Positions 5,942 to 60,056 of a stretch of 64,000 nt of DNA are shown here, in pieces (position 1 is the first letter of the stretch; the number at the start of each line of letters is the position of its first letter). This DNA comes from Candidatus Nanoarchaeia archaeon. GTDB lineage: Archaea > Nanobdellota > Nanobdellia > Woesearchaeales > UBA10216. Made by a program: the position numbers and the translations under genes. Location: positions 248 to 64,247 of the forward strand of contig JANQSZ010000023.1 in assembly GCA_028279045.1 (NCBI GenBank), read 5' to 3'. Below the pieces are notes generated by a model that saw only the letters and a program-made list of their open reading frames with translations, was not told the DNA's origin and did no database searches.

Positions 5942-7285
5942 ATGGTATTAGACAAGCTTGGAGATTCTTTGAAAGGAACACTGCAAAAGATTGCAGGTTC
6001 TGTGTTTGTAGATGAACGACTCATCAATGAACTTGTCCGCGACATCCAACGTGCACTCCTATCAGCCGATGTTAACGTCAAGCTTGTATTTACGCTAACA
6101 GATAACATCAAGAAAAGAATTACCAACGAACAAACTCCTGCATCCATTACAAAAAAGGAACACCTTATCAATATTGTGTACGAAGAATTAGTCAAGTTTC
6201 TCGGTGAAGAAGAATATAACATCGACACCAGCAAAAAACCATTCACCTTAATGCTCGTCGGCTTGTTCGGTTCAGGAAAAACAACAACCGCCGGCAAGTT
6301 AGGAAAACATTTTCAAAAACGCGGTTTGAAAGTTGCGATGATTTCAACAGATACATGGCGTCCTGCTGCATTCCAACAACTCAAACAAGTTGGTGATCAA
6401 GTGAATCTTCCTGTATTCGGCAACCCTGATGAAAAAGATCCTGTTGCCATCTACAATCAATTCAAAGATGAACTCGAACAATATGATATTGTGATTGTCG
6501 ACACAGCAGGTCGTGACGCACTTTCTGATGAACTGATTGAGGAAATCAAAAGTATCACTGAAGCAGTTCAACCAGATGAAAGCATGCTGGTTATTAGCGC
6601 AGACATTGGTCAGACTGCTGAAAAACAAGCAACAGCATTCCACGACACGTGTAATGTGAAAAGCGTTACAATCACAAAACTCGACGGTACTGCAAAAGGT
6701 GGAGGTGCGTTAAGCGCTTCTGCTGTTTCTGGTGCAAAAGTCGCATTCATCGGTGTCGGCGAACACGTTGATGATCTTGAAGCGTTCAACCCAAAACGTT
6801 TTGTTGGCCGTCTACTTGGCATGGGCGACATCGAAACACTTCTCGAAAAAGCAAAAGAAGCAATCGATGAAGATACTGCTGAAGATCTTGGTAAGAAATT
6901 TCTCAAAGGCGAGTTCAACATGCTTGATTTGTACGAGCAAATGGCTGCAATGAAAAAGATGGGGCCGTTAAGCAAAGTTGTTGACATGATTCCTGGCATG
7001 GGTAACATGGGTTTATCGAAAGATATGCTCGAGCAACAGCAAGGCAAAATTGAATCCTGGCGATACATCATGGATTCCATGACAAAAAGAGAATTAGAAG
7101 AACCCGATACCATTTCTGCCCAGCGCATCGACAGGATCGCAAAAGGATCTGGGCGTTCCATTAGCGACATTCGCGAATTAATGAAACAATACAAGCAAGC
7201 CAAGAAAATGGGAAAGATGATGAAGAATCCCAAGCAAATGGAAAAGATGATGAAGAAATTTGGCTCTGGTCAGTTTCAGGCGTAA
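5942..7285 (+). CDS. srp54: signal recognition particle protein SRP54
   Basis: 447 aa. GTPase motifs GLFGSGKTTTAGKLG, DTAGR and TKLDG, followed by a Met-rich C-terminal M domain (MGKMMKNPKQMEKMMKKF). Confidence 0.9.
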   Translation: MVLDKLGDSLKGTLQKIAGSVFVDERLINELVRDIQRALLSADVNVKLVFTLTDNIKKRITNEQTPASITKKEHLINIVYEELVKFLGEEEYNIDTSKKPFTLMLVGLFGSGKTTTAGKLGKHFQKRGLKVAMISTDTWRPAAFQQLKQVGDQVNLPVFGNPDEKDPVAIYNQFKDELEQYDIVIVDTAGRDALSDELIEEIKSITEAVQPDESMLVISADIGQTAEKQATAFHDTCNVKSVTITKLDGTAKGGGALSASAVSGAKVAFIGVGEHVDDLEAFNPKRFVGRLLGMGDIETLLEKAKEAIDEDTAEDLGKKFLKGEFNMLDLYEQMAAMKKMGPLSKVVDMIPGMGNMGLSKDMLEQQQGKIESWRYIMDSMTKRELEEPDTISAQRIDRIAKGSGRSISDIRELMKQYKQAKKMGKMMKNPKQMEKMMKKFGSGQFQA

Positions 7286-7341
7286 GACTTTCGATTATTT
7301 CTCACGAGTTCTTTTGAAGAATGAAACAAGAAAAGAAGTAT

Positions 7342-7468
7342 GCGCCCGCAATGGCGTATCTGGTCACGCCGCTAGATTCAGACTCTAGTGTCAGTAAGGA
7401 CTTCGGGGTTCAAATATCTTTCGGCTGCAGATATGGTTCGGAAGGTTGAAATTCCCCGTGCGGGCGCT
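7342..7468 (+). tRNA. tRNA-Leu (anticodon CAG) with a probable non-canonical intron of ~38 nt in the T-arm region; boundaries approximate
   Basis: Acceptor GCCCGCA/UGCGGGC, D-stem GGCG/CGCC, anticodon stem CUAGA/UCUAG with loop UUCAGAC, short variable hairpin GUC-AGUAAG-GAC. T-arm 5' half CGGGG-UUCAAAU is separated from its 3' half CCCCG by an insertion with an internal hairpin (ATATCT...AGATAT). Confidence 0.5.
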
Positions 7469-7477
7469 GTCTTCTAA

Positions 7478-7490
7478 ACATTTATAAAGC
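7478..7490 (+). promoter_or_regulatory. TATA box (TTTATAAA) 28-35 nt upstream of tRNA-Ser(GGA)
   Basis: CATTTATAAAGC at the correct distance from the tRNA 5' end. Confidence 0.5.
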
Positions 7491-7515
7491 AACTCCAGTT
7501 TTTTCAACGTATTTT

Positions 7516-7598
7516 GCCGGGATCGCGTAATCTGGTATCGCACAGGACTGGAACTCCTGGCCCTTCGGGGCGTCTGGGTTCAAATCCCAGTCCCGGCG
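7516..7598 (+). tRNA. tRNA-Ser (anticodon GGA)
   Basis: Acceptor GCCGGGA/UCCCGGC, 3-bp D-stem, anticodon stem CAGGA/UCCUG with loop CUGGAAC, long variable arm GCCCUUCGGGGCGU, T-arm CUGGG-UUCAAAU-CCCAG, discriminator G. Confidence 0.8.
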
Positions 7599-7658
7599 TC
7601 AGCAGGGAGTGGGGCTACGAAACGTAAGTTGAGTGTGTCCCAGTCCCGGCGTTTCAAA
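7599..7658 (+). repeat. conserved tRNA-Ser 3'-trailer module (copy 1): hairpin plus a 14-nt duplicate of the tRNA 3' end, abutting the downstream ATG
   Basis: TCAGCAGGGAGTGGGGCTACGAAAC...GTTGAGTGTGTCCCAGTCCCGGCGTT is about 85% identical to 21739-21794. CCCAGTCCCGGCG repeats tRNA positions 7586-7598, and GGGAGTGGG (7605-7613) can pair with CCCAGTCCC (7639-7647). Confidence 0.6.
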
Positions 7659-8252
7659 ATGACAAAAACACATATCATATTGGCGGTATTGGTTTTAACC
7701 CTCGCTGCATGCACGAGTCAGCAAAACCTAGAATCGCCGTACGTAGGAGAAGAAACGCGAGACATCAAGTATTTATCAGAAGCTGATGTTGAAGGTTTGC
7801 AAGCTGGCATCGGAACACCTCTTGGCGGTCTTGCTAAACCCGCTGAGTTGAATGGCTTGCCAGGCCCACGTCACGTATTGGACGCAGCAGATGCACTTGA
7901 CATAACACCGCAACAGGAAGAGTCAATCCAATTTATCTATGATGAAATGAACACCGATGCGAAGCTGTTGGGCGCTGATTTGATTGCAATTGAGCAGGAA
8001 ATCGATGACGGGTTGTCGAGCGGAATGATAACAGAAGAACAATTGGAAGTGTTGCTCAATGAAAGCGCAGAAATCTACGGTCAGCTACGATATGTTCATT
8101 TAGTTGCTCATCTCCAGACTGCAGACATTCTGTCCCAATCTCAGATTGATGCATACAATACTTTGCGAGGCTATGACAAAGCTGATCCTTGTGAGAACGT
8201 TCCAGAAGGCCACCCTCCTGAGATGTGGAAATTACACCACAATTGTCCTTAA
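7659..8252 (+). CDS. predicted lipoprotein, hypothetical (possible LTxxQ/Spy-like periplasmic fold)
   Basis: Start chosen at the second in-frame ATG (MTKTHIILAVLVLTLAAC..., lipobox LAAC). The upstream ATG at 7629 lies inside the conserved tRNA-trailer module. Confidence 0.55.
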   Translation: MTKTHIILAVLVLTLAACTSQQNLESPYVGEETRDIKYLSEADVEGLQAGIGTPLGGLAKPAELNGLPGPRHVLDAADALDITPQQEESIQFIYDEMNTDAKLLGADLIAIEQEIDDGLSSGMITEEQLEVLLNESAEIYGQLRYVHLVAHLQTADILSQSQIDAYNTLRGYDKADPCENVPEGHPPEMWKLHHNCP

Positions 8253-14958: not shown

Positions 14959-15936
14959 ATGGATCTCGACAATATTGCATTGACATTTCCTGGACAGAAT
15001 TCTCATTTTCACGGTATGGGCTCTGATTTGTACATTTACGACGCTGCCCGAGTAGTTATTGACACCGCTACCGAAGTCATGGGCGACGTGCTAGGATTAA
15101 ATTTACGCGAAGTGATGTTTAGTGCAAATGATGAACGGTTAAGTCTCGGTCCTGTCGCACAAACTGCAATACACACAGGGAGCATGGCCACATACGCAGT
15201 GTTGAACGATATGTACGGCGACAAAATAAAAGCAGTTGCAGGGCACTCATTCGGTCAAGTAGCTGCAATGGTTTCTGCTGACGTGCTTTCTCCCCAAGAT
15301 GGATTAGTACTAGTTGAACGCCGGGCAACTTTCGCAGACAATTTGTTTCCTGCCACAGAAGAAGATCCTGTGTATATGATAACCATGCTCGGCACTGAGG
15401 CAAATACTGAATTTAAGGACCAGGTAGAACAAGAGTGTGAATATGTTTCTGCAGAGAAAGGGTATGTCGGGCTCGCAACAATAAATTCTCCCACAATGAT
15501 CGTTATTTCTGGAAATCCAGAGGCAGTGGAAACCGCAGCGAGTAATCTTCGTGCCCGGACAAAGAATCTTGATCGTGATCATCGGATACGATACATTCCA
15601 ACCGATATCAAAGGCCCATTCCACACACCCCTAATGGATGATGTGGAAACAGATTTAGCAGTCGTAATGCAAGACATGCAGTTTCACGAGCCGTCAAAAG
15701 TGGTAATTGTGAACGGCATTCCAATGACAACAGGATTAGATAGAGCATATTTGGAAAATACAACAACGGTTGTTGATTTCCGTGCATCACTTGAACATTT
15801 GTTTGCTAGTCCCAATTACCAACACATCATTCAATCAGCTCCCGGCGATGCACAAGGAAAGATTGCTCGTCGTGGTTATGACATGCGTGGCACAGAATTC
15901 CACCTTGCGGACGAACTTCTTAACTTAGCCCGTTAA
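14959..15936 (+). CDS. acyltransferase, malonyl-CoA:ACP transacylase (FabD)-like
   Basis: 325 aa. N-terminal FPGQNSHFHGMG matches the FabD FPGQGSQ motif, and GHSFGQ is the active-site Ser motif GHSxG. Confidence 0.65.
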   Translation: MDLDNIALTFPGQNSHFHGMGSDLYIYDAARVVIDTATEVMGDVLGLNLREVMFSANDERLSLGPVAQTAIHTGSMATYAVLNDMYGDKIKAVAGHSFGQVAAMVSADVLSPQDGLVLVERRATFADNLFPATEEDPVYMITMLGTEANTEFKDQVEQECEYVSAEKGYVGLATINSPTMIVISGNPEAVETAASNLRARTKNLDRDHRIRYIPTDIKGPFHTPLMDDVETDLAVVMQDMQFHEPSKVVIVNGIPMTTGLDRAYLENTTTVVDFRASLEHLFASPNYQHIIQSAPGDAQGKIARRGYDMRGTEFHLADELLNLAR

Positions 15937-18604
15937 TTTGTATGTACCAAGGTTCAGCATCTGTTGCAGAGCTAATTGTTTTTCGCATTGCCCCTCCAGG
16001 TCCGCTGCTTCCTTGTAGCCCAATTCTCCAGTAGTTCACTTGTCCTGATTTTTGATTATCTGATCCTCCAAAAGGATCTGTCTCAACTGTAAATACTACA
16101 TTCGCAGTATCACCACGTGTTGTTCGCCAGTGATTCAGCACATCAGTAATGTCAACACAATCATACCCATTGGAAGTCCAAGCGCTTGCAGTTGATTCGA
16201 CAGAGCCGCGGCCATACGCTTCAAGTGTAGCCATGTTGTCATTGGCAACGTCAATAAGAGAATCAATAGCAGTTACCGTTACCACATCTGACGGCGTTCC
16301 TTCAACGCTTTCTCGTGACGCACAGAATACTGCATCCGTAACTACAGCATTGACCGGTATTCCTGAGTATCCTATGCATTCAAAATATGTTCTGTAAGGG
16401 AAATACGTGTATCGTTGATCTGCCATGGCACAAGTAAGTTGTACTGGCGTTGTTCCTGAAATCGTAAAATCAACATAATCAGCGCGGCACCATGAGGAAG
16501 CAGTTCCACACGTTGCTCCAACGACAACAGGATCGTTCTCATCAATATTCACCGTTACCATCTCTGTTCTCCATCCCGTTACACCATTTGGTGTGGTTGT
16601 CCACGTATGTTCCTCAGTTCCATCAACAAGTAACCGGTAGACGTCTCCTGTTCCGTCATCATCTTCATCACAGTAGCGAACCGCAACATCATACGTTCCA
16701 CTGCCTTCAGGGAAATTAGCTAGAGTAGCAGTGGTTTCAGACGAGTGTGTTCCTTCGTGTCGTGCACATTCCCCGCCAGATGGGCTGCCACAAACACAGT
16801 TTGTTGTTGCCGTAAAGCCACCGGCATGCGTCAAATCTTCCATTTCAACAAAGTACGGTGCAGGTGCTGCTCCTGCTGAAACATCAAAGGAAATTAAGTA
16901 GTCAACAGTGTTCGCATTTGAGTCTGTATCTTCGCACCGGACATAGATAGTATACGCTTGTCCATCCGATAGTGGACCGTATGTATCCGAATGTGACGTT
17001 CCACCTGTAGTGCTAAATGTGTTCGCCATTACAGAAAAGTCTTCGCCGCCATCTGTATCCCATTTACATGTTGCTGCTTCATCAGTGTTAACAGAAATTG
17101 GTGTGCTTGTAGTTCCGCTAGCAAGCGTTCCCGACGGTGATCCGCCTGAGATAACTGGAGGTACGCCAGGTGCAACATCAAACGTTATGATAAAGTCTGC
17201 TGTGTTAGCGTTACCACTTGAGTCTTCGCAGCGTGCATAATAGGTGTATGCTTGTCCATCAACAAGGCCATTGAGTGATTCATTGTGTGTTATGCCGTCC
17301 GAAACAGTGAATGTGTTAGCCATCGAAGCATAATCTATTCCCGAGCTCGTGTCAAATTTACACGTAGCTGCTTCGTTGGTTGTAATGGTCAAATTTGTAT
17401 TAGTAGTTCCCGTCGGTAATGTTCCTGTTGGCAATCCATTGCTCAGAACAGGAGGAGTGACATCCGGCCCTATTTCAATTGTGAATGAGAGAACTGCATC
17501 AGTTGGGTTCTGGTTCAAGTTAATAGATTGGTCTTGACATCGCACATAATATATTTCCGTATCCCCGTCAGACAATCCAGATATGGAATCAGTATGTGTA
17601 ATCGAATTCGTTGTAACAAACAAGTTCGGCATGGAATCATATGCAGTTCCCGGTACAACATCATATCGGCAATCTGCAAGTTCATCTGTGCTCACAACTA
17701 AGTCCACGTTTGTAGTTCCCGACGGTAAAAATCCGCTTGGATCCAATTGAACGATCTGTGGTGGTGTTGTATCAGGTGGCCGAACCGTAAATTGAATGAC
17801 AAAATCGAGTGGGTTTTGATTTTGATTCGGAGATTGGTCTTCACATTTAGTGTAGTAGCGGTACGTTGTGTCCTCAACAAGGCCGCTGATTGTTTCACGA
17901 TGCTGTACACCGCCTGTTGTACTAAAATCACTGTCCATATCATCGTAATTTTCTCCAGGGTAAGGATGGAACTTACAATCTGCAGGTTCGTTTGTATCGA
18001 ATCCCATGATTACTTGAACAGTATCGCTTGGCAGTGAAGTATCAACAGGCAACGGATTGATCTGTACAGGAGGTGTCCAGTCTTCTGGGTCTGGTGCATC
18101 TTGTTCTTCTTGTTCAACATTTGCAATCAGTGTTCCTGACGCTGTGTGGGAATTAGCTGCGGAAGAGTCTTCGTGGTGCCACGACACTTCTATGTTGAAT
18201 TTAGCTTGTTCGAATGAAATGTCATTGATGTGCTCACAATCAGCTTCTGCAGATGCCCAATGATCGAGCGTGAACGCTTGCCTGTCACCTGTTCGCATTA
18301 ACACACCGCCAGGATCAATGAACACGCAACGTAATTCAAGCTCATCGCTGATTGCGGTTACATTCGTAACTCGTATCAAATCAGACCGATCATTCTCCAG
18401 TAAAATATACACTTCGTCTGCATTCGAGTCGATTCGTGCGTCCAGACATTCAATGTTCTGCGCAATAATGCATGATTCAGGTAAAACTTTGTCAACATCA
18501 ACTAATCCATAATAGTACACTACAGAGACTGTAGCCATGACTATCAAAATCGCCCAGCCGTAGGTGAGCATAAACTCCATCGCTGCTTGTGCTTTCATGG
18601 ACAT
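15920..18604 (-). CDS. giant pilin-fused surface protein (class III signal peptide + pilin domain + four ~70-aa Cys-containing repeats + C-terminal domain shared with the next gene)
   Basis: 894 aa. N-terminus MSMKAQAAMEFMLTYGWAILIV matches the EppA-type prepilin motif QxAMEF. Residues 30-150 align with the major pilin at 55327-55860 (LPE.C...C.D....ADEVYILLEN). Four internal repeats TxxC(K/R)(F/W/Y)D...MAN.F....G..H......L.DG..Y.YY.RC.D are present. Confidence 0.7.
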   Translation of the reverse strand: MSMKAQAAMEFMLTYGWAILIVMATVSVVYYYGLVDVDKVLPESCIIAQNIECLDARIDSNADEVYILLENDRSDLIRVTNVTAISDELELRCVFIDPGGVLMRTGDRQAFTLDHWASAEADCEHINDISFEQAKFNIEVSWHHEDSSAANSHTASGTLIANVEQEEQDAPDPEDWTPPVQINPLPVDTSLPSDTVQVIMGFDTNEPADCKFHPYPGENYDDMDSDFSTTGGVQHRETISGLVEDTTYRYYTKCEDQSPNQNQNPLDFVIQFTVRPPDTTPPQIVQLDPSGFLPSGTTNVDLVVSTDELADCRYDVVPGTAYDSMPNLFVTTNSITHTDSISGLSDGDTEIYYVRCQDQSINLNQNPTDAVLSFTIEIGPDVTPPVLSNGLPTGTLPTGTTNTNLTITTNEAATCKFDTSSGIDYASMANTFTVSDGITHNESLNGLVDGQAYTYYARCEDSSGNANTADFIITFDVAPGVPPVISGGSPSGTLASGTTSTPISVNTDEAATCKWDTDGGEDFSVMANTFSTTGGTSHSDTYGPLSDGQAYTIYVRCEDTDSNANTVDYLISFDVSAGAAPAPYFVEMEDLTHAGGFTATTNCVCGSPSGGECARHEGTHSSETTATLANFPEGSGTYDVAVRYCDEDDDGTGDVYRLLVDGTEEHTWTTTPNGVTGWRTEMVTVNIDENDPVVVGATCGTASSWCRADYVDFTISGTTPVQLTCAMADQRYTYFPYRTYFECIGYSGIPVNAVVTDAVFCASRESVEGTPSDVVTVTAIDSLIDVANDNMATLEAYGRGSVESTASAWTSNGYDCVDITDVLNHWRTTRGDTANVVFTVETDPFGGSDNQKSGQVNYWRIGLQGSSGPGGAMRKTISSATDAEPWYIQINGLS
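16880..17101. repeat. near-identical intragenic repeat shared by the two giant pilin-fused genes (copy 1)
   Basis: Encodes PISVNTDEAATCKWDTDGGEDFSVMANTFSTTGGTSHSDTYGPLSDGQAYTIYVRCEDTDSNANTVDYLISFDV. The counterpart at 20146-20370 is over 80% identical, and the antisense frames also match (…SPPSVSHLHVAAS…). Confidence 0.6.
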
Positions 18605-21600
18605 GTTGTTTTTGTTATGTATCCTGATGATCTTGTTGCGCCGACGATCGATCCATCAATGCCGTTTCCTGAGTAGTCTACTACTGTGCTGCCTGTTCCG
18701 TCAAGATGATATCCGGCTACAAGATCTGTTGTGTCACATCCAAAATCATTGACACCTGCTGCATGATTTGCTGCAAGTTCTGGTTGTGATAGTGCGCGAT
18801 CGTAAACTCTTACTTCGTCTATAAAGCCAGTGAAGTCGCTATCCAGTCCACCGCCCCATCCAGATCCTGTGTCTGCCCTTCCTATGGCAGCCCATTGAGC
18901 AGCGCCTGTTCCAGGTGTTGTTCCCGGTGCATTGCTGTTCACTTCATTCCCATTAATGTACACGCGCAGTGTCGTGCCATCCCAGGTTCCAGCAACGTGC
19001 TGCCAAATTCCTTGTGTGATCGTTCCGCCTTTGACTGTTCTTGCGCTTGATCGCCAGAAACCTAATTCAAGTTGATTTCCTTCAACATACATTGCGCGGT
19101 CTCCGGTGTTGATTCTTTCTTCGATAATGTTTCCATCGGCTGCGCTCGGGTTGATCCATGCTTCGTATGTAAACGATGCTGGTGTGGCGAGTGAACTAAT
19201 GTCAAGATAATCGCCTGATCCATCAAACTGAAATGCTTTACTTGTTGACGTGCTAATTACGTTCAACGTAACCTGTTGCGGTACACCTGCATTTCCTCCC
19301 GCACCATCTAGGTCGAAAGGTGTTGCTACAATATTGTATGTTCCAACTGCAGGTGTCCATACATGGTAGTTTCCGCTTGCATCGCCAGCGTACGCGTACG
19401 GTGCACTATCTTCGATTCTTGTGAGAACGTGCTGAGTCTCGAATACAACGCTTTCTACACTGCCGGAGGTAACTGCTTGTATATTCAAATTTGGATACAT
19501 TGCTAAGTCCACCGTTTCTGTTGCACTCATCGGATCATAACCAGAAATTGGCAAGTCTGTATCCGCATTAATCAAATACAATTCTGTTACAGCTGTTGTT
19601 TGTGCTTCCGACGCGTCGTTGATTTGAATGTACCAAGGATTATCTACAGTGGTTGAATTAATTGTTTTTCGAACTCGAGGGGATGAAGACGATTGTTCCC
19701 CGATTCTCCACCTGTGCGTACTGCCAGCAACTGCGTTGCTTGATCCTCCGAAAGGAGTTGCTTCGATGGAAAAGTACACGTTGGAGCTATCTCCCTTGGT
19801 AACTCTCCAATGATTCAACACATTCGTAATGTCAACACATTCGTAACCAGGCGTTGACCATCCACTCGTCGATATAACAGGACCTTTTGCTGTTCCTTCT
19901 AGCGTAGCCATGTTATCACTATCAACATTAATCACTTCATCGATAGCTGTAATTGTAATGGTGTCTGTTGGCGATCCTTCTGTTACATTCAATGCTGCAC
20001 AGAATACTGCGTCGTTAACCGTGTTTGATGCTGCTAAGCCAACGTAGCCGCGACATTCAAAATAAGTTCTGTATGGATAGTATGTGTATCGCTGATCTGC
20101 TTCTGTGTTGCAATACAGTCTGTGTGTTGTAAAAGTCGATACATCTACATCAAAACTAATCAACGCATCAGCAGGGTTTGCGTTACCAGAGCCATCTTCA
20201 CATCGTACATAGATAGTGTATGCTTGTCCGTTTTGCAATGGCGGATTGTACGTATCCGAGTGTGACGTTCCTCCAGTCGTACTAAACGTATTCGCCATTG
20301 CAGCGAATGCTTCTCCACCATCGGTATCCCATTTACATGTCGCAGCTTCGTTTGTCGTAACCGATATAGGTGTGCTTGTTGTTCCTGCAGCGAGTGTACC
20401 TGTAGGTAAGAGATCGCCGAGCACTGGTGGTGTGCTATCTGAGAGTTCAATTTCAACAGTGATTGTAAAGTCATCAGGATTAGAATTACCAGCCCCATCT
20501 TCACATCGTACATGATGGTCAATCATATCCCCGTCGTTAAATCCAGAGACAAGTGTGCTATGTGCTGTTCCGCCTGTGGTGTCAAAGTTGTTGGCCATCA
20601 AGACAAAACTAATTCCTGGGACAGGGTCCCATTTGCAAATAGCATTTTCATCAGTAGTCAATGCAATGTTCACATCTGTTGTACCGGGTGGTTGTGGTAC
20701 TGATGGGAGTCCATCGCTTCGTACTGGAGGATCAGTATCTGGAGGCAGTGCAACATCGAACGTAATGAGCTCCCCAGTTGGATTCATATTGTTGCTTGCA
20801 TCTCTGCAACGAACGTAGTAATTGTAAGTAACACCGTCAGAAACAGCAACGTCGAACTCAAACACATTACCTCCCATGTGAATAAATGTGTTTAACATCG
20901 ATGGGTATGGAATATCTGAGTCTTGGTTGAATCGACATGTCGCTAATTCATCCGTACTCACAGAAAGTGTTGCCGTCGTTGTGCCTGCTCCAAGTGTTCC
21001 CATCGGACCAATGACAGTGATAACTGGCGGATCCGGGTCAGGCGGAGGTGCAACGCCAACTGGTCGCACGTTGGCGAGCATTGTTCCTGTCGCAACATGC
21101 ACAAAGTCATCAGGCACCGAAGCACCCAGTGATGTTTCTGATCTCCAGTCTACTTTCAAATCAAACAGAACACGTTGTTCTCCGTAGTTTGCAAGCGATC
21201 CGCAATTGTCAAGGTGAAACAATTCTGTTTCTCCGTTTTCAACAAGCGTAGAGGTTGGTGTAAGAATATTACAAACCAATTCTCCATCTCTGGTTGTCGC
21301 GGTAATCTGATCGATGAGTACATTATGTCCTTTCAAATTGGTAATATCTAGAAAAACATCATTGCTTGCTTCATCAACAACAAAGTCCTTGCAATAGAGG
21401 TTTCCTCCAAGATCACATTCTTCTGGGAGTGCCTCTGAAGCGTCAATATCAGCGAAATATGCAATTCCCGCTATCACACCAACCGCGATCAAGATAGCCC
21501 ACCCATAGGTGATCAAGAATTCCATAGCATACTGTGCTCTAGCGATACTCTTCAACCTCTTTTTGCGCTTGCGCTTACTCCTTTTCTGGTATGTTTCATT

Positions 21601-21621
21601 TAAAAAGCTTTGCCGTCGCAA
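18595..21621 (-). CDS. giant pilin-fused surface protein paralog with C-terminal LamG/concanavalin-like domain
   Basis: 1008 aa. The ORF begins with TTG at 21619-21621. The QxAMEF prepilin motif (ARAQYAMEFLITYGWAILIAVGVIAG) sits about 30 aa in, so the true start is uncertain. It has a pilin-like domain, three Cys-containing ~70-aa repeats, a middle region homologous to the C-terminus of the 894-aa protein, and a C-terminal LamG-like segment (FDGSGDYLDIS...AWINPS...IDEVRVYDRALS). Overlaps the upstream paralog by 10 nt. Confidence 0.7.
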   Translation of the reverse strand: MRRQSFLNETYQKRSKRKRKKRLKSIARAQYAMEFLITYGWAILIAVGVIAGIAYFADIDASEALPEECDLGGNLYCKDFVVDEASNDVFLDITNLKGHNVLIDQITATTRDGELVCNILTPTSTLVENGETELFHLDNCGSLANYGEQRVLFDLKVDWRSETSLGASVPDDFVHVATGTMLANVRPVGVAPPPDPDPPVITVIGPMGTLGAGTTTATLSVSTDELATCRFNQDSDIPYPSMLNTFIHMGGNVFEFDVAVSDGVTYNYYVRCRDASNNMNPTGELITFDVALPPDTDPPVRSDGLPSVPQPPGTTDVNIALTTDENAICKWDPVPGISFVLMANNFDTTGGTAHSTLVSGFNDGDMIDHHVRCEDGAGNSNPDDFTITVEIELSDSTPPVLGDLLPTGTLAAGTTSTPISVTTNEAATCKWDTDGGEAFAAMANTFSTTGGTSHSDTYNPPLQNGQAYTIYVRCEDGSGNANPADALISFDVDVSTFTTHRLYCNTEADQRYTYYPYRTYFECRGYVGLAASNTVNDAVFCAALNVTEGSPTDTITITAIDEVINVDSDNMATLEGTAKGPVISTSGWSTPGYECVDITNVLNHWRVTKGDSSNVYFSIEATPFGGSSNAVAGSTHRWRIGEQSSSSPRVRKTINSTTVDNPWYIQINDASEAQTTAVTELYLINADTDLPISGYDPMSATETVDLAMYPNLNIQAVTSGSVESVVFETQHVLTRIEDSAPYAYAGDASGNYHVWTPAVGTYNIVATPFDLDGAGGNAGVPQQVTLNVISTSTSKAFQFDGSGDYLDISSLATPASFTYEAWINPSAADGNIIEERINTGDRAMYVEGNQLELGFWRSSARTVKGGTITQGIWQHVAGTWDGTTLRVYINGNEVNSNAPGTTPGTGAAQWAAIGRADTGSGWGGGLDSDFTGFIDEVRVYDRALSQPELAANHAAGVNDFGCDTTDLVAGYHLDGTGSTVVDYSGNGIDGSIVGATRSSGYITKTTCP
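20146..20370. repeat. near-identical intragenic repeat shared by the two giant pilin-fused genes (copy 2)
   Basis: Encodes PISVTTNEAATCKWDTDGGEAFAAMANTFSTTGGTSHSDTYNPPLQNGQAYTIYVRCEDGSGNANPADALISFDV, matching 16880-17101. Confidence 0.6.
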
Positions 21622-21655
21622 CGCTTAAAAACACGTTACTTACTCTAAACAGCAT

Positions 21656-21738
21656 GCCGGGAGTGGACGATCCGGTACGTCCAGTCGCCTCGAAAGCGAC
21701 CTCCGCAAGGTATCTGGGTTCAAATCCCAGTCCCGGCG
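21656..21738 (+). tRNA. tRNA-Ser (anticodon CGA)
   Basis: Acceptor and T-arm are identical to tRNA-Ser(GGA) at 7516 (GCCGGGA...CUGGG-UUCAAAU-CCCAG-UCCCGGC-G). Anticodon stem GUCGC/GCGAC with loop CUCGAAA, long variable arm. Confidence 0.8.
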
Positions 21739-21794
21739 TCAGGGGACTGGGGCTACGAAACACAGTTGAGTCTGTCCCAGTCCCGGCGTTACAC
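21739..21794 (+). repeat. conserved tRNA-Ser 3'-trailer module (copy 2)
   Basis: TCAGGGGACTGGGGCTACGAAACACAGTTGAGTCTGTCCCAGTCCCGGCGTT. GGGACTGGG (21743-21751) pairs perfectly with CCCAGTCCC (21776-21784), and the 14-nt tRNA 3' end is duplicated. An ATG follows 5 nt later. Confidence 0.6.
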
Positions 21795-22040
21795 ATGACA
21801 CAAAAAATCGAAACAGGTGTTGTCCATAAGCTACCTGCAGATTTGAAGAAAGCAGTAGCGGTCAAAGGCACGCTAGAACTCTGGAACGATATCACGCCCC
21901 TAGCTAGAAATGAATTCATCTGCTGGGTTGAAGATGCAAAGAAACCAGAGACCCGAGCTAAAAGAATCAAAAGAACCTGCGAAGAACTACACGAAGGAAT
22001 GCGCCGCCCTTGCTGTTGGCCTGGGTGCAAGCATCGTTAG
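21795..22040 (+). CDS. YdeI/OmpD-associated family protein (DUF1801-like)
   Basis: Start taken at the ATG after the trailer module (MTQKIETGVVHKLPADLKKAV...LARNEFICWVEDAKKPETRAKRIKRT). The upstream ORF-track start would run through the tRNA. Confidence 0.55.
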   Translation: MTQKIETGVVHKLPADLKKAVAVKGTLELWNDITPLARNEFICWVEDAKKPETRAKRIKRTCEELHEGMRRPCCWPGCKHR

Positions 22041-22709: not shown

Positions 22710-22828
22710 TGCCGCTGCGGGGATCTGAACCCCGGACCTCGTGATGTCCCAGTTAGCTAGTCATCGGCAAAAGCCTCAGCACTCATTATTATGAGTCACG
22801 CGCTCTAACCAGGCTGAGCTACAGCGGC
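22710..22828 (-). tRNA. tRNA-Met (elongator) or tRNA-Ile2, anticodon CAU, with a ~44-nt intron at the canonical 37/38 position
   Basis: Reverse complement has acceptor GCCGCUG/CAGCGGC, D-stem GCUC/GAGC, anticodon stem CGUGA...UCACG and loop CUCAUAA. The loop is interrupted by TAATGAGTGCTGAGGCTTTTGCCGATGACTAGCTAACTGGGACA. T-arm CGGGG-UUCAGAU-CCCCG. Not an initiator (G1-C72, AU-containing anticodon stem). Confidence 0.7.
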
Positions 22829-23464: not shown

Positions 23465-24388
23465 TTAGATCCAGGAGCGGAGTTTCCAGATTTGCTTCAA
23501 CTGGTTACTCACACGGTGATGCGCCACAGAAATCAATACACCGATCACAATCATGAATCCGCCAACTACATCTTTCTCTGTCGGTAGTTCTCGAAAGATG
23601 AAAAACACGTACAAGATAACAATAAATGGATCAATAGTTCGAATGACAGCGGTTTTCGACACGTCAAGATGTTCATATGCTTTGAAGAACAAATAGAATG
23701 ACACGATAGCCGTCAATATTCCAGTAAAAAAGATAAGCGGAAGTAAATGCAGCGGCAACCAAATAAATTCAACAGAGTCGAACAGCGTCGTGACAAGTCC
23801 AACTCCTAAAGAGATGGAAAGCAGTGAGAAGATCACACGCATCTGAACTAAAACAAGTGGATGTGTATCCTTCACAAACATTTTCGATGCAAAATGATGT
23901 AATGCAGCAGCCAATGCTCCCATTACCGGAAGTAAAATCCACAGCCCAGATCCGTTTCCATTGGTATAACTCAGTACAACAGTTCCCGCAACCGCAAGGC
24001 CAGCTCCTAATATTTCCACTTTACTTAATCGTTCCTTCAAGAAAAGAACTCCCAGCAAGATAATGAACAACGTCCCCAGTCGCCAGATAAACGCAAGCAA
24101 GTTTGGGCCAATCAAGAACATTCCAGAGCTCCAACCAAGTGCAGCAAGCGCATTTGTTACTCCTAAAATCAATCCGTGCTTCCAATGTTTCTTCAGCACG
24201 CTATGAAAGTCCAAATCTTTTCGAACAAATACCAATATTGTTGCAGCGATTGCTCCGCCGATAAACCACTGCAGCATCATACTCCACGGGTTGGTATGTT
24301 CCAAAAATATTTTACCGAAAATAAACCCAGTGCTAATTATTAAAGAGCCTGCAATGACGTACAATATTCCAATGTGTTCTTTTTTCAT
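23465..24388 (-). CDS. EamA/DMT-family transporter
   Basis: Ten hydrophobic helices in two EamA-like halves. Start set at MKKEHIGIL (24388) because the longer ORF would overlap tRNA-Ala. Confidence 0.65.
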   Translation of the reverse strand: MKKEHIGILYVIAGSLIISTGFIFGKIFLEHTNPWSMMLQWFIGGAIAATILVFVRKDLDFHSVLKKHWKHGLILGVTNALAALGWSSGMFLIGPNLLAFIWRLGTLFIILLGVLFLKERLSKVEILGAGLAVAGTVVLSYTNGNGSGLWILLPVMGALAAALHHFASKMFVKDTHPLVLVQMRVIFSLLSISLGVGLVTTLFDSVEFIWLPLHLLPLIFFTGILTAIVSFYLFFKAYEHLDVSKTAVIRTIDPFIVILYVFFIFRELPTEKDVVGGFMIVIGVLISVAHHRVSNQLKQIWKLRSWI

Positions 24389-24393
24389 GAGAA

Positions 24394-24467
24394 TGGACCG
24401 AGCGGGATTCGAACCCGCAGTCTCCCCCAAGCCAAGGGGGCACGATACCGGATTTCGCCATCGGCCC
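24394..24467 (-). tRNA. tRNA-Ala (anticodon GGC)
   Basis: Reverse complement has acceptor GGGCCGA/UCGGUCC with the diagnostic G3:U70 wobble, anticodon stem CCCCC/GGGGG with loop UUGGCUU, T-arm GCGGG-UUCGAAU-CCCGC, discriminator A. Confidence 0.85.
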
Positions 24468-59855: not shown

Positions 59856-60056
59856 ATCCAGAGATAAAAAACAGTATGACGACTACACCAAACGCCATCA
59901 GTAAGCGAAGCCAGAATCGTCGTGATTGAAAGAGTTGGATTTTCATAGTCTTGTGATACCTTGCTGCGTTATAAAACCTTGCACAAAAAATTTGTCGCTT
60001 TAGCCGTGGAGCTTTACGCTCCACTTGCGTCAGCGTCAACCGATGTCCGGTTGATA

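Follow-up and report, generated by a model that had tools for sequence, protein, structure and literature searches.

What is a copy of a tRNA's own 3' end doing a few nucleotides before the start codon of the next gene? The question is raised by a stretch of 64,000 nucleotides of a Candidatus Nanoarchaeia archaeon (assembly GCA_028279045.1, contig JANQSZ010000023.1, positions 248 to 64,247 of the forward strand; hereafter the window), in which two tRNA-Ser genes are each followed by the same short module that ends in such a copy and abuts an ATG. The reading that we favour, and to which we assign a probability of about 0.4, is that tRNA, module and downstream mRNA are made as one transcript in which the module would serve as a tRNA-like processing signal, or t-element, the module itself having arisen by an insertion or duplication at the end of a tRNA gene.

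The first of the two genes, tRNA-Ser(GGA), was located at 7516-7598 on the plus strand by ARAGORN (reported as 7515-7600) and by the Rfam tRNA model (7516-7598, 55.8 bits). It ends with discriminator G7598 and its CCA is not encoded. The second, tRNA-Ser(CGA), lies at 21656-21738, also on the plus strand (ARAGORN, 21655-21740). We refer to them as locus A and locus B. Their acceptor stems and T arms are identical, and the D, anticodon and variable arms differ. Directly 3' of the discriminator, each is followed by a unit of 50-53 bp made of an insert of 35-38 bp and an exact 15-bp repeat of the tRNA tail. At both loci the module reads TCAG(CA)GGGA(G/C)TGGGGCTACGAAAC, three to four variable nucleotides and GTTGAGT(G/C)TG, followed by the exact second TCCCAGTCCCGGCGT. 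The two copies of TCCCAGTCCCGGCGT lie, all on the plus strand, at 7585-7599 and 7638-7652 (locus A) and, as found by exact repeat search, at 21725-21739 and 21775-21789 (locus B). The repeat covers tRNA positions 60-73, that is T60 (the last base of the T-loop), the 3' strands of the T stem and of the acceptor stem and discriminator G73, plus one T. The second copy provides the 3' strand of a tRNA-like helix and a copied discriminator, G7651 at locus A and G21788 at locus B. The earlier note, which was made from the sequence alone, had described this duplicate as 14 nt long; the duplication is indeed exact but its length is 15 nt. The layout of the module that it gave also stands, with the corrections that locus A carries an extra CA after TCAG and that one variable base (G or C) separates GTTGAGT from TGT. 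The 13-mer CCCAGTCCCGGCG is present in four exact copies in the window (7586, 7639, 21726 and 21776) against 0.38 expected, a count that was reached in 0 of 100 shuffles. A third repeat copy of TCCCAGTCCCGGCGT, beyond the pair at each locus, was not found in the window.

The inserts (7600-7637, 38 nt, at locus A; 21740-21774, 35 nt, at locus B; both on the plus strand) are themselves related to the tail. They contain the reverse complement of CCCAGTCCC, the segment formed by the T-stem 3' strand and the first four acceptor bases, so that the DNA has the layout X-X'-X. At locus B this inverted copy, GGGACTGGG (21743-21751), is 100% complementary to both flanking copies, and its locus A counterpart, GGGAGTGGG (7605-7613), has one mismatch. 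The core GGGGCTACGAAAC, which precedes GTTGAGT in the insert, was found at 7611 and 21749 only in the window. When the two inserts are aligned, 31 of 38 columns are identical and seven differ, and both 15-nt second copies are unchanged. The limits of the homology between the loci are abrupt: it starts just before the T arm, with a shared block from TCTGGG, and stops after GGCGTT. Only CA..TG is common to the insert termini. A look-up of the YceI protein led us to an independent contig, and the independent Logan assembly of SRR20820731 reproduces locus A, breaking exactly at the repeated tRNA end (contig L001 ends ...GGCGTCAG and contig L124 begins GCGTCAGCAGGGAGTGGGGCTACG...). This indicates that the module is not an assembly artefact. 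The exact repeats, the shared inserts, the folds described below and the independent assembly of locus A together confirm the central claim of the earlier note, namely that one and the same module, with a duplicated tail near an ATG, comes after each of the tRNA-Ser genes.

At both loci the predicted minimum free energy fold of tRNA plus module leaves the cloverleaf intact and adds a long imperfect hairpin after it. The computed energies of the module hairpins are -28.0 kcal/mol at locus A and -25.3 kcal/mol at locus B (z-scores -5.4 and -3.2). The first 12 positions of the hairpin mirror the 7+5 register of the tRNA acceptor/T-arm helix, the copied tail C61'-C72' being the 3' strand and the copied discriminator G73' remaining unpaired. 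The helix of locus A sets GCAGGGA-GTGGG against CCCAG-TCCCGGC with two mismatches (10 of 12 pairs), and its 5' strand is close to the genuine tRNA 5' strands GCCGGGA and CTGGG. At locus B there are nine contiguous pairs (GGGACUGGG, in the strand pair that we designate GGGACUGGG/CCCAGUCCC), a 2-nt bulge and then three more pairs (GUC with GGC). The CA indel leads to two different pairing solutions for G71'C72' at the two loci. The predicted helix thus has what is expected of a t-element in this part, an acceptor plus T stem of about 12 bp and an unpaired discriminator-like 3' base. Beyond the 12 positions the helix becomes irregular, with AC/GU, tandem G.A/A.G, AAC/GUU and a loop of 3-4 nt. The earlier note had proposed that the module can fold either as its own hairpin or with the tRNA 3' end, and both folds are indeed possible: at locus B, pairing of GGGACUGGG with the tRNA's own tail gives -59.6 kcal/mol and the module's own hairpin -64.2 kcal/mol, the latter being more stable by 4.6 kcal/mol.

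The position of the module relative to the downstream genes is equally regular. Downstream gene A (7659-8252, plus strand) encodes a 197-aa lipoprotein-like protein without Pfam match, and its ATG lies 7 nt past the copied discriminator; downstream gene B (21795-22040, plus strand) encodes an 81-aa protein of the OmdA/YdeI family, with the ATG 6 nt past the copied discriminator. These distances refine the 5 to 8 nt reported before. Both starts are credible, that of gene A because it opens a lipoprotein-type signal peptide and that of gene B because the OmdA domain match extends from residue 12. Both genes have native GC content. Products of alternative starts of the downstream genes had no exact match on record in the protein collection. 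Spurious long open reading frames (ORFs) traverse the tRNA-Ser genes and modules (21591-22040 on the plus strand, 21596-22030 on the minus strand and 7629-8252 on the plus strand), so that automatic gene calling could mis-start the downstream genes.

We then considered where transcription of genes A and B could start. TATA boxes like TTTATAAA sit about 24-27 nt 5' of the tRNA genes of the window. From the sequence and comparison with the other promoters of the window, the box of tRNA-Ser(GGA), TTTATAAA, was placed at 7481-7488 on the plus strand, ending 27 nt 5' of the tRNA, and it is the sole promoter-like element upstream of the gene at 7659. A TATA-like box of tRNA-Ser(CGA), CTTAAAAA, lies at 21624-21631 on the plus strand and ends 24 nt 5' of the tRNA. 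The upstream regions of 27 genes of the window were listed and TATA boxes counted by eye. In about 13 of the 27, roughly 22-26 nt separate the end of a TATA box from the ATG, as would suit leaderless transcripts; in several others the TATA box lies farther away and a GGTGA/GGAGG Shine-Dalgarno sequence is present. Only three of these genes, A, B and a gene for an EamA transporter, lack both elements and have a tRNA or its mimic there instead; at genes A and B the GC-rich module occupies the usual position of the TATA box. The EamA gene (23465-24385, minus strand) has its ATG 5 nt after a genuine tRNA-Ala(GGC) (24394-24467; the comparator interval, defined by ARAGORN, Pfam and the comparison of upstream regions, is 24380-24467 on the minus strand), and this pair appears to be a simple example of a leaderless mRNA punctuated by a tRNA. 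No oligo-T terminator was found between the tRNA-Ser and the ATG at either locus (TTT follows the module at locus A and nothing of the kind at locus B), and the tRNA-Lys, tRNA-Glu and tRNA-Met genes of the window are followed by T runs (T4-T5). To put a number on the abutment, we took as comparison 125 other tRNAs, from the window and from fetched loci: an ORF of 60 aa or more has its ATG within 12 nt of the tRNA end in 3 of them and in 2 of the 2 copied ends, which makes it unlikely that the position of both copied tails is coincidental.

Under the favoured reading, the tRNA promoter would give one transcript comprising tRNA, module and mRNA, as suggested by the lack of TATA box, Shine-Dalgarno sequence and oligo-T between tRNA and ATG. 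tRNase Z would cut this transcript after G73 of the tRNA, as is standard for tRNA genes without encoded CCA, and would, as we propose, also cut after the copied G73' of the tRNA-like helix. The remaining mRNA would begin UUUCAAAAUG or UUACACAUG with a leader of 6-7 nt, that is as a leaderless mRNA. Such a product would have the usual mRNA form of this genome and would parallel the apparent role of tRNA-Ala for EamA. Among the possibilities listed in the earlier note, it is this combination of a 3'-trailer or RNase Z-like role with co-transcription that we favour, given the missing signals between tRNA and ATG and the kept 7+5 register of the predicted helix. A selected role at the RNA level would also fit the second copies, which are perfect despite the 7 of 38 differing insert columns, and the placement of the tails, which is like that of the tRNA-Ala end. 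It would fit, too, the two ways of pairing G71'C72' that result from the CA indel, and the location of three of four substitutions and all indels outside pairs, a pattern weighed below.

The same reading includes an origin. The module may derive from a single insertion or duplication at the DNA level in a tRNA-Ser gene that already abutted a start codon, either by site-specific insertion that duplicated 15 bp of the target or by a fold-back template switch that left X-X'-X. If one period is removed, the tRNA-Ser lies 6-7 nt from the ATG, which is the kind of arrangement that tRNA-Ala has. The second tRNA-Ser gene would have received the module by copying through the identical 3' ends, with repair synthesis primed in the donor T arm copying the insert and re-annealing via the second copy. 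The module would have been tolerated or kept since a tRNA-like end next to the ATG is restored. If this origin is right, the module would preserve, rather than invent, a tRNA-punctuated mode of expression.

Several parts of this proposal have precedents. Transcripts punctuated by tRNAs are known from the mitochondrial tRNA punctuation model. In archaea, tRNA-mRNA and tRNA-sRNA co-transcripts are found in Thermococcus kodakarensis (tRNA-Lys/TK0306 and tRNA-Arg/sR44) and in Nanoarchaeum, in a study where leaderless denotes a leader of at most 8 nt and transcription starts about 23 nt after the TATA box (PMC4247193). As we propose here, in these co-transcripts the tRNA promoter serves the next gene and the tRNA 3' endonuclease makes the downstream 5' end, whereas the tRNA-Ser loci interpose a mimic of the tRNA end between tRNA and mRNA. 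In Haloferax, tRNase Z and RNase P cleave a tRNA-like t-element upstream of the 5S rRNA (PMC4326828, PMC3296008), and in plant mitochondria t-elements and acceptor-stem-like stem-loops are found at mRNA 5' ends (PMC1920247). Like the module, the t-elements of Haloferax volcanii 5S rRNA and of plant mitochondria have a helix that mimics the acceptor/T-arm, end in a discriminator-like base and stand immediately 5' of another RNA whose 5' end tRNase Z would make. In contrast to them, the module is made of an exact 15-nt tail copy and its inverted copy in tandem after a real tRNA, lacks the GGTTCRANYCC T-loop and would yield a leaderless mRNA, its cleavage being a prediction. Partial tRNA 3'-end duplications, tRNA-like processing signals and tRNA-mRNA co-transcripts are therefore already known; new is the combination, a t-element-like helix built from the exact tail of the neighbouring tRNA, behind both tRNA-Ser genes of a DPANN-type archaeon and apparently set to yield leaderless mRNAs. 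If the proposal is correct, tRNA promoters can serve genes that have no promoter of their own, in an archaeon whose genome is tiny and whose mRNAs are mostly leaderless, with the tail-copy helix supplying the cleavage site. It would extend t-element punctuation from haloarchaeal rRNA and plant mitochondria to archaeal mRNAs, and it would make an insertion at a tRNA 3' end tolerable because the processing signal is re-created.

A number of observations weigh against the proposal. A tRNA directly abutting the ATG would do the same job, so that the module is not needed for it. The T-loop motif GGTTCRANYCC is absent, and its place is taken by 24-25 nt of irregular helix with tandem G.A pairs (loop sequence GCTACGAAAC..GTTGAGT(C/G)TGT, 24-25 nt); nothing resembling a t-element elbow was found, the extended hairpin arms agreeing with a T-loop at no more than 5 of 9 positions, not a significant similarity. 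That archaeal tRNase Z would accept a helix without T-loop is accordingly an assumption of the proposal. An Rfam search of the module, permissive to E=10, returned no family and nothing tRNA-like. The substitutions between the two loci do not help either: three of four, and all indels, fall in loops or unpaired parts, but this excess is not significant (p ~0.13, by hand calculation with the locus B fold as reference), and a paired-versus-unpaired test that gave p=0.02 is biased, because a substitution that breaks a pair itself turns the position into an unpaired one. With two copies only, covariation offers no test. The whole proposal is drawn from the sequence of a single metagenome-assembled genome (MAG), and the cleavage at its centre is a predicted one.

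The distribution of the module counts against a selected function as well. The module core had no genuine match in 185,579 species-representative genomes, the two hits being chance bacterial ones, and it was not found in the viral contigs of IMG/VR. We also scanned metagenomes with the 23-nt 3' half of the tRNA-Ser and recovered at least 120 loci, from haloarchaea, methanogens and DPANN-like archaea. Among the matches listed, the module was present in 0 of about 115 evaluable tRNA-Ser loci with an identical 3' half. The earlier note had named a lack of conservation in related genomes as an outcome that would speak against its interpretation, and this is largely what we observed. The closest relative by tRNA among these matches (L073, 54 of 60 identical bases in the 5' part) has a plain T-run after the tRNA and no module. 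Synteny based on SRP54 is already gone at 69-70% identity (L125-L127), so that orthologous intergenic regions are not comparable. As far as the sampled sequences go, the module is lineage-specific, and its absence from the sampled relatives lowers our confidence in a selected function.

This distribution brings us to the strongest competitor, namely that the module is an inert scar in the DNA, left by something that once happened at the tRNA 3' end, with the RNA hairpin as a by-product without selected role. This could be the decay of an integrative element, of which the attL and attR attachment sites stayed and nearly everything in between was lost, a transposon-type insertion that duplicated 15 bp of its target, or a fold-back template switch. 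Gene conversion would have carried the unit to the second tRNA-Ser gene. That the module is lineage-specific and missing from all sampled relatives is what a scar would predict. The homology between the two loci, confined from the T arm to GGCGTT, is as expected for copying primed by identical tRNA ends, and the X-X'-X layout is typical of template switching. Moreover, short copies of the tRNA-Ser tail occur further downstream of the gene in other archaeal lineages, at +88 in L080, +86 in L016, L089 and L103, and +152 in L024. The contigs with the L080 and L016-type duplications are Methanomicrobia-like. In L080 (locus at 805-1060) the spacer holds an inverted and a direct copy of the T-loop region (GATTTGAAC/GTTCAAATC), that of L016 a palindrome (GATTTTCAA/TTGAAAATC), and L024 is a tandem partial duplication. 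No element genes adjoin any of these copies and no integrase adjoins L016. Duplication at this tRNA-Ser end therefore appears to be a recurrent kind of event in archaeal lineages. In these other lineages, the tail copies form no hairpin with the copy and no start codon abuts them.

Partial 3' tRNA duplications flank archaeal proviruses and plasmids as att remnants, and such duplications at tRNA genes are usually longer than 15 bp. The tRNA-Ser loci share with them a direct repeat of the tRNA 3' part, here an exact 15 bp bounding an insert at both loci, downstream of an intact tRNA, and a dyad at the junction. They differ in having 35-38 bp between the repeats, no element genes or integrase and the same remnant at two tRNAs. 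Neither integrase or other element genes, among about 50 scanned ORFs of the window, nor a matching attP site, in viral contigs, were found. The att-like footprint suggested in the earlier note is still a good account of the origin of the module, given the 15-bp repeat and a 9-8-9 dyad. As an account of the whole, an inert scar has further difficulties. Seven of the 38 insert columns differ between the loci, yet the second copies are perfect at both, and the copied ends lie 6-7 nt before the ATG of genes that lack promoter and Shine-Dalgarno sequence, a proximity shared by only 3 of the 125 other tRNAs. Two independent decays to the same remnant of 35-38 nt are implausible, so that a copying step must be assumed, and no integrase, Cas1 or transposase gene was detected among the scanned ORFs of the window and no attP-like partner in IMG/VR. 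We regard the inert scar as possible but doubtful. Should it be only a scar, the module would be an ordinary by-product of recombination at tRNA 3' ends and a caution for gene callers, in view of the spurious ORFs and assembly breaks.

A related idea is that the site is still live, as the core of a tyrosine recombinase site or the target of a casposase or Cas1-type enzyme, kept for an element elsewhere in the genome. At locus B the tRNA end and the insert form the dyad CCCAGTCCC-GGCGTCAG-GGGACTGGG, a perfect 9-8-9 inverted repeat, which resembles recombinase core sites. At locus A the dyad is degraded, with a spacer of 10 nt and one mismatch. A casposase is brought to mind by the start of the 15-bp repeat, exactly at the T-loop/T-stem border: in Aciduliprofundum boonei the casposase target consists of an 18-bp T-loop 'leader' and a 15-bp target-site duplication that overlaps tRNA-Pro (PMC5137440). 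As in casposon integration (PMC5137440, PMC10359463), a 15-bp duplication, within the 14-15 bp looked for, lies directly downstream of the T-loop region and starts at T60, and in size the insert corresponds to a CRISPR spacer. The tRNA-Ser loci differ from casposons in that 14 nt of the duplicated segment lie within the tRNA, compared with an overlap of 5 bp in A. boonei, that the two inserts are homologous to each other and that terminal inverted repeats beyond CA..TG are lacking, as are casposase and PolB genes in the window by Pfam. The casposon of Methanosarcina mazei, furthermore, excises precisely and leaves no footprint (PMC10359463).

We also looked for an element that could use such a site. 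Viral contigs scanned with the module core, the attP-like dyad and the tRNA half yielded either no match or a single chance one, in a high-GC coding region without a tRNA, and no matching element was found there. Among the approximately 50 ORFs of the window that were scanned, Pfam recognised, besides others, aminoacyl-tRNA synthetases, SRP54, a thermosome subunit and genes for pili and secretion. None of the scanned ORFs gave an integrase, Cas1 or transposase domain, in agreement with the earlier statement that no mobile-element genes lie nearby, and no recombinase gene was found in the 64 kb. A live site is consequently improbable. The more specific version, in which each locus is the product of a Cas1/casposase-type integrase, with the T-loop as 'leader', the 15-bp tail as 'repeat' and the 35-38 bp as a spacer-sized capture, is highly improbable; if true, a DPANN archaeon would have, at a tRNA gene, a proto-CRISPR-like repeat-spacer-repeat of a single unit.

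The remaining alternatives concern the RNA. A non-canonical tRNA intron, spliced out by the endonuclease, could make up the 50-53 nt that separate equivalent positions in the two repeats (59/60, for example), in which case the 'complete' tRNA of the gene finders would be an illusion created by the 5' end of the intron. The idea is prompted by introns in the same genome, one at 59/60 in tRNA-Leu(CAG), in a bulge-helix-bulge (BHB) of the type hBHBh', and one at the canonical site in tRNA-Met. The repeat begins exactly at T60, which matches BHB introns at 59/60, the GTTGAG that precedes the second copy is similar to the GTTGAA found at the 3' end of the Leu intron, and the excised 50-mer would be a rod-like circle. 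However, a strict BHB scan, which required two 3-nt bulges separated by 4 bp and which recovered the tRNA-Leu intron perfectly (h=5, h'=9), found no motif common to both tRNA-Ser loci that yields a tRNA, and in the best one built by hand a bulge measures 5 nt rather than 3 nt and h' and H are 15 nt apart. The first copy already completes the tRNA without splicing, and that conformer is more stable (-64.2 against -59.6 kcal/mol). We therefore rejected a BHB intron and hold splicing of this unit to be very unlikely.

We think just as little of a terminator or attenuator, in which the hairpin would stop or tune read-through by switching between the tRNA 3' end and the copy. The two pairings of GGGACUGGG are mutually exclusive, and an attenuation leader was among the roles suggested in the earlier note. 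The oligo-T tract of archaeal intrinsic terminators is not there, with TTT after the hairpin at locus A and none at locus B, unlike the T runs after other tRNAs of the window. The switch would go through the less stable pairing and unfold a tRNA that is already finished and folded, and termination would silence the downstream genes, which have no other promoter. This suggestion is thus not upheld.

Least probable is a split-tRNA donor. To our knowledge, the split sites described so far are found in the anticodon and D arms or close to them, and not at 59/60. The module as a leader plus positions 60-73 that is trans-spliced onto 5' fragments of the Ser UGA and GCU isoacceptors would suit DPANN archaea, which are known for split tRNAs (PMC3218864), and would pair two modules with the two Ser isoacceptors not seen in the window, but no module complement exists in the 64-kb window on either strand with up to two mismatches, no BHB can be constructed, and relatives have intact UGA and GCU genes.

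Four other candidates were set aside. A miniature inverted-repeat transposable element was dismissed because terminal inverted repeats are missing, and a cargo island because a third copy of the repeat is missing and the GC content of the downstream genes is native. An integron attC site failed on topology: the imperfect hairpin of attC carries R'' (RYYYAAC) and R' (GTTRRRY) at its outer ends, and GTTGAGT fits GTTRRRY but, with ..GAAAC, sits at the hairpin apex, 3-4 nt apart. A K-turn/L7Ae reading of the tandem G.A pairs was dropped since the two loci share no conserved 3-nt bulge.

The host can be placed from the window itself. The source is an archaeon with GC-rich tRNAs of archaeal form, and is Woesearchaeota-like, with BHB tRNA introns and mostly leaderless genes. 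The best non-self matches of its SRP54 (5942-7285) are in MAGs of Woesearchaeota/'Nanoarchaeota', at no more than 70% identity. Of the two tRNA-Ser genes in the window, tRNA-Ser(CGA) is atypical. It has G8 in place of U8 and a weak variable arm of just 2 bp, and ARAGORN draws it with an 8-position acceptor stem that contains a G.G mismatch and with a 4-bp T stem. It falls under the gathering threshold of the Rfam tRNA model, the top clan match being tRNA-Sec with 28.3 bits, and only its acceptor stem and T arm agree with the GGA gene and with relatives. Just upstream of it lie two very large ORFs on the minus strand, 18595-21621 (1008 aa) and 15920-18604 (894 aa), the former with an archaeal pilin-like N-terminus (..FLITYGWAILIAVGVIAG..).

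The tRNA-Leu(CAG) mentioned above had not been called. It lies at 7344-7467 on the plus strand, between SRP54 and tRNA-Ser(GGA), and was missed by ARAGORN and Rfam; ARAGORN calls it only after in-silico splicing. Its 38-nt intron (7415-7452) interrupts the T-loop at 59/60 and forms a perfect hBHBh', CGGGG[TTCA](AAT)...[TGAA](ATT)CCCCG. The leader (7334-7350) and trailer (7459-7475) of this gene are complementary over 17 nt (82%), the acceptor stem being extended by GC/GC, a 3x3 internal loop and AGAAG/CTTCT. Because no obvious TATA box lies upstream, tRNA-Leu may be co-transcribed with SRP54 and processed through the extended helix. The tRNA-Met(CAT) gene (22710-22828, minus strand) has a 44-nt intron at the canonical site, with a relaxed BHB only (H = CTCA/TGGG, no h'), and CUGA and GAUGA strings within the intron recall C/D boxes. 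Finally, tRNA-Arg(TCG) is followed, at 59990-60056 on the minus strand, by two consecutive perfect hairpins, TCAACCG-GACAT-CGGTTGA and GTGGAGC-GTAAA-GCTCCAC, and the gap from this gene to the next ORF is unusually long.

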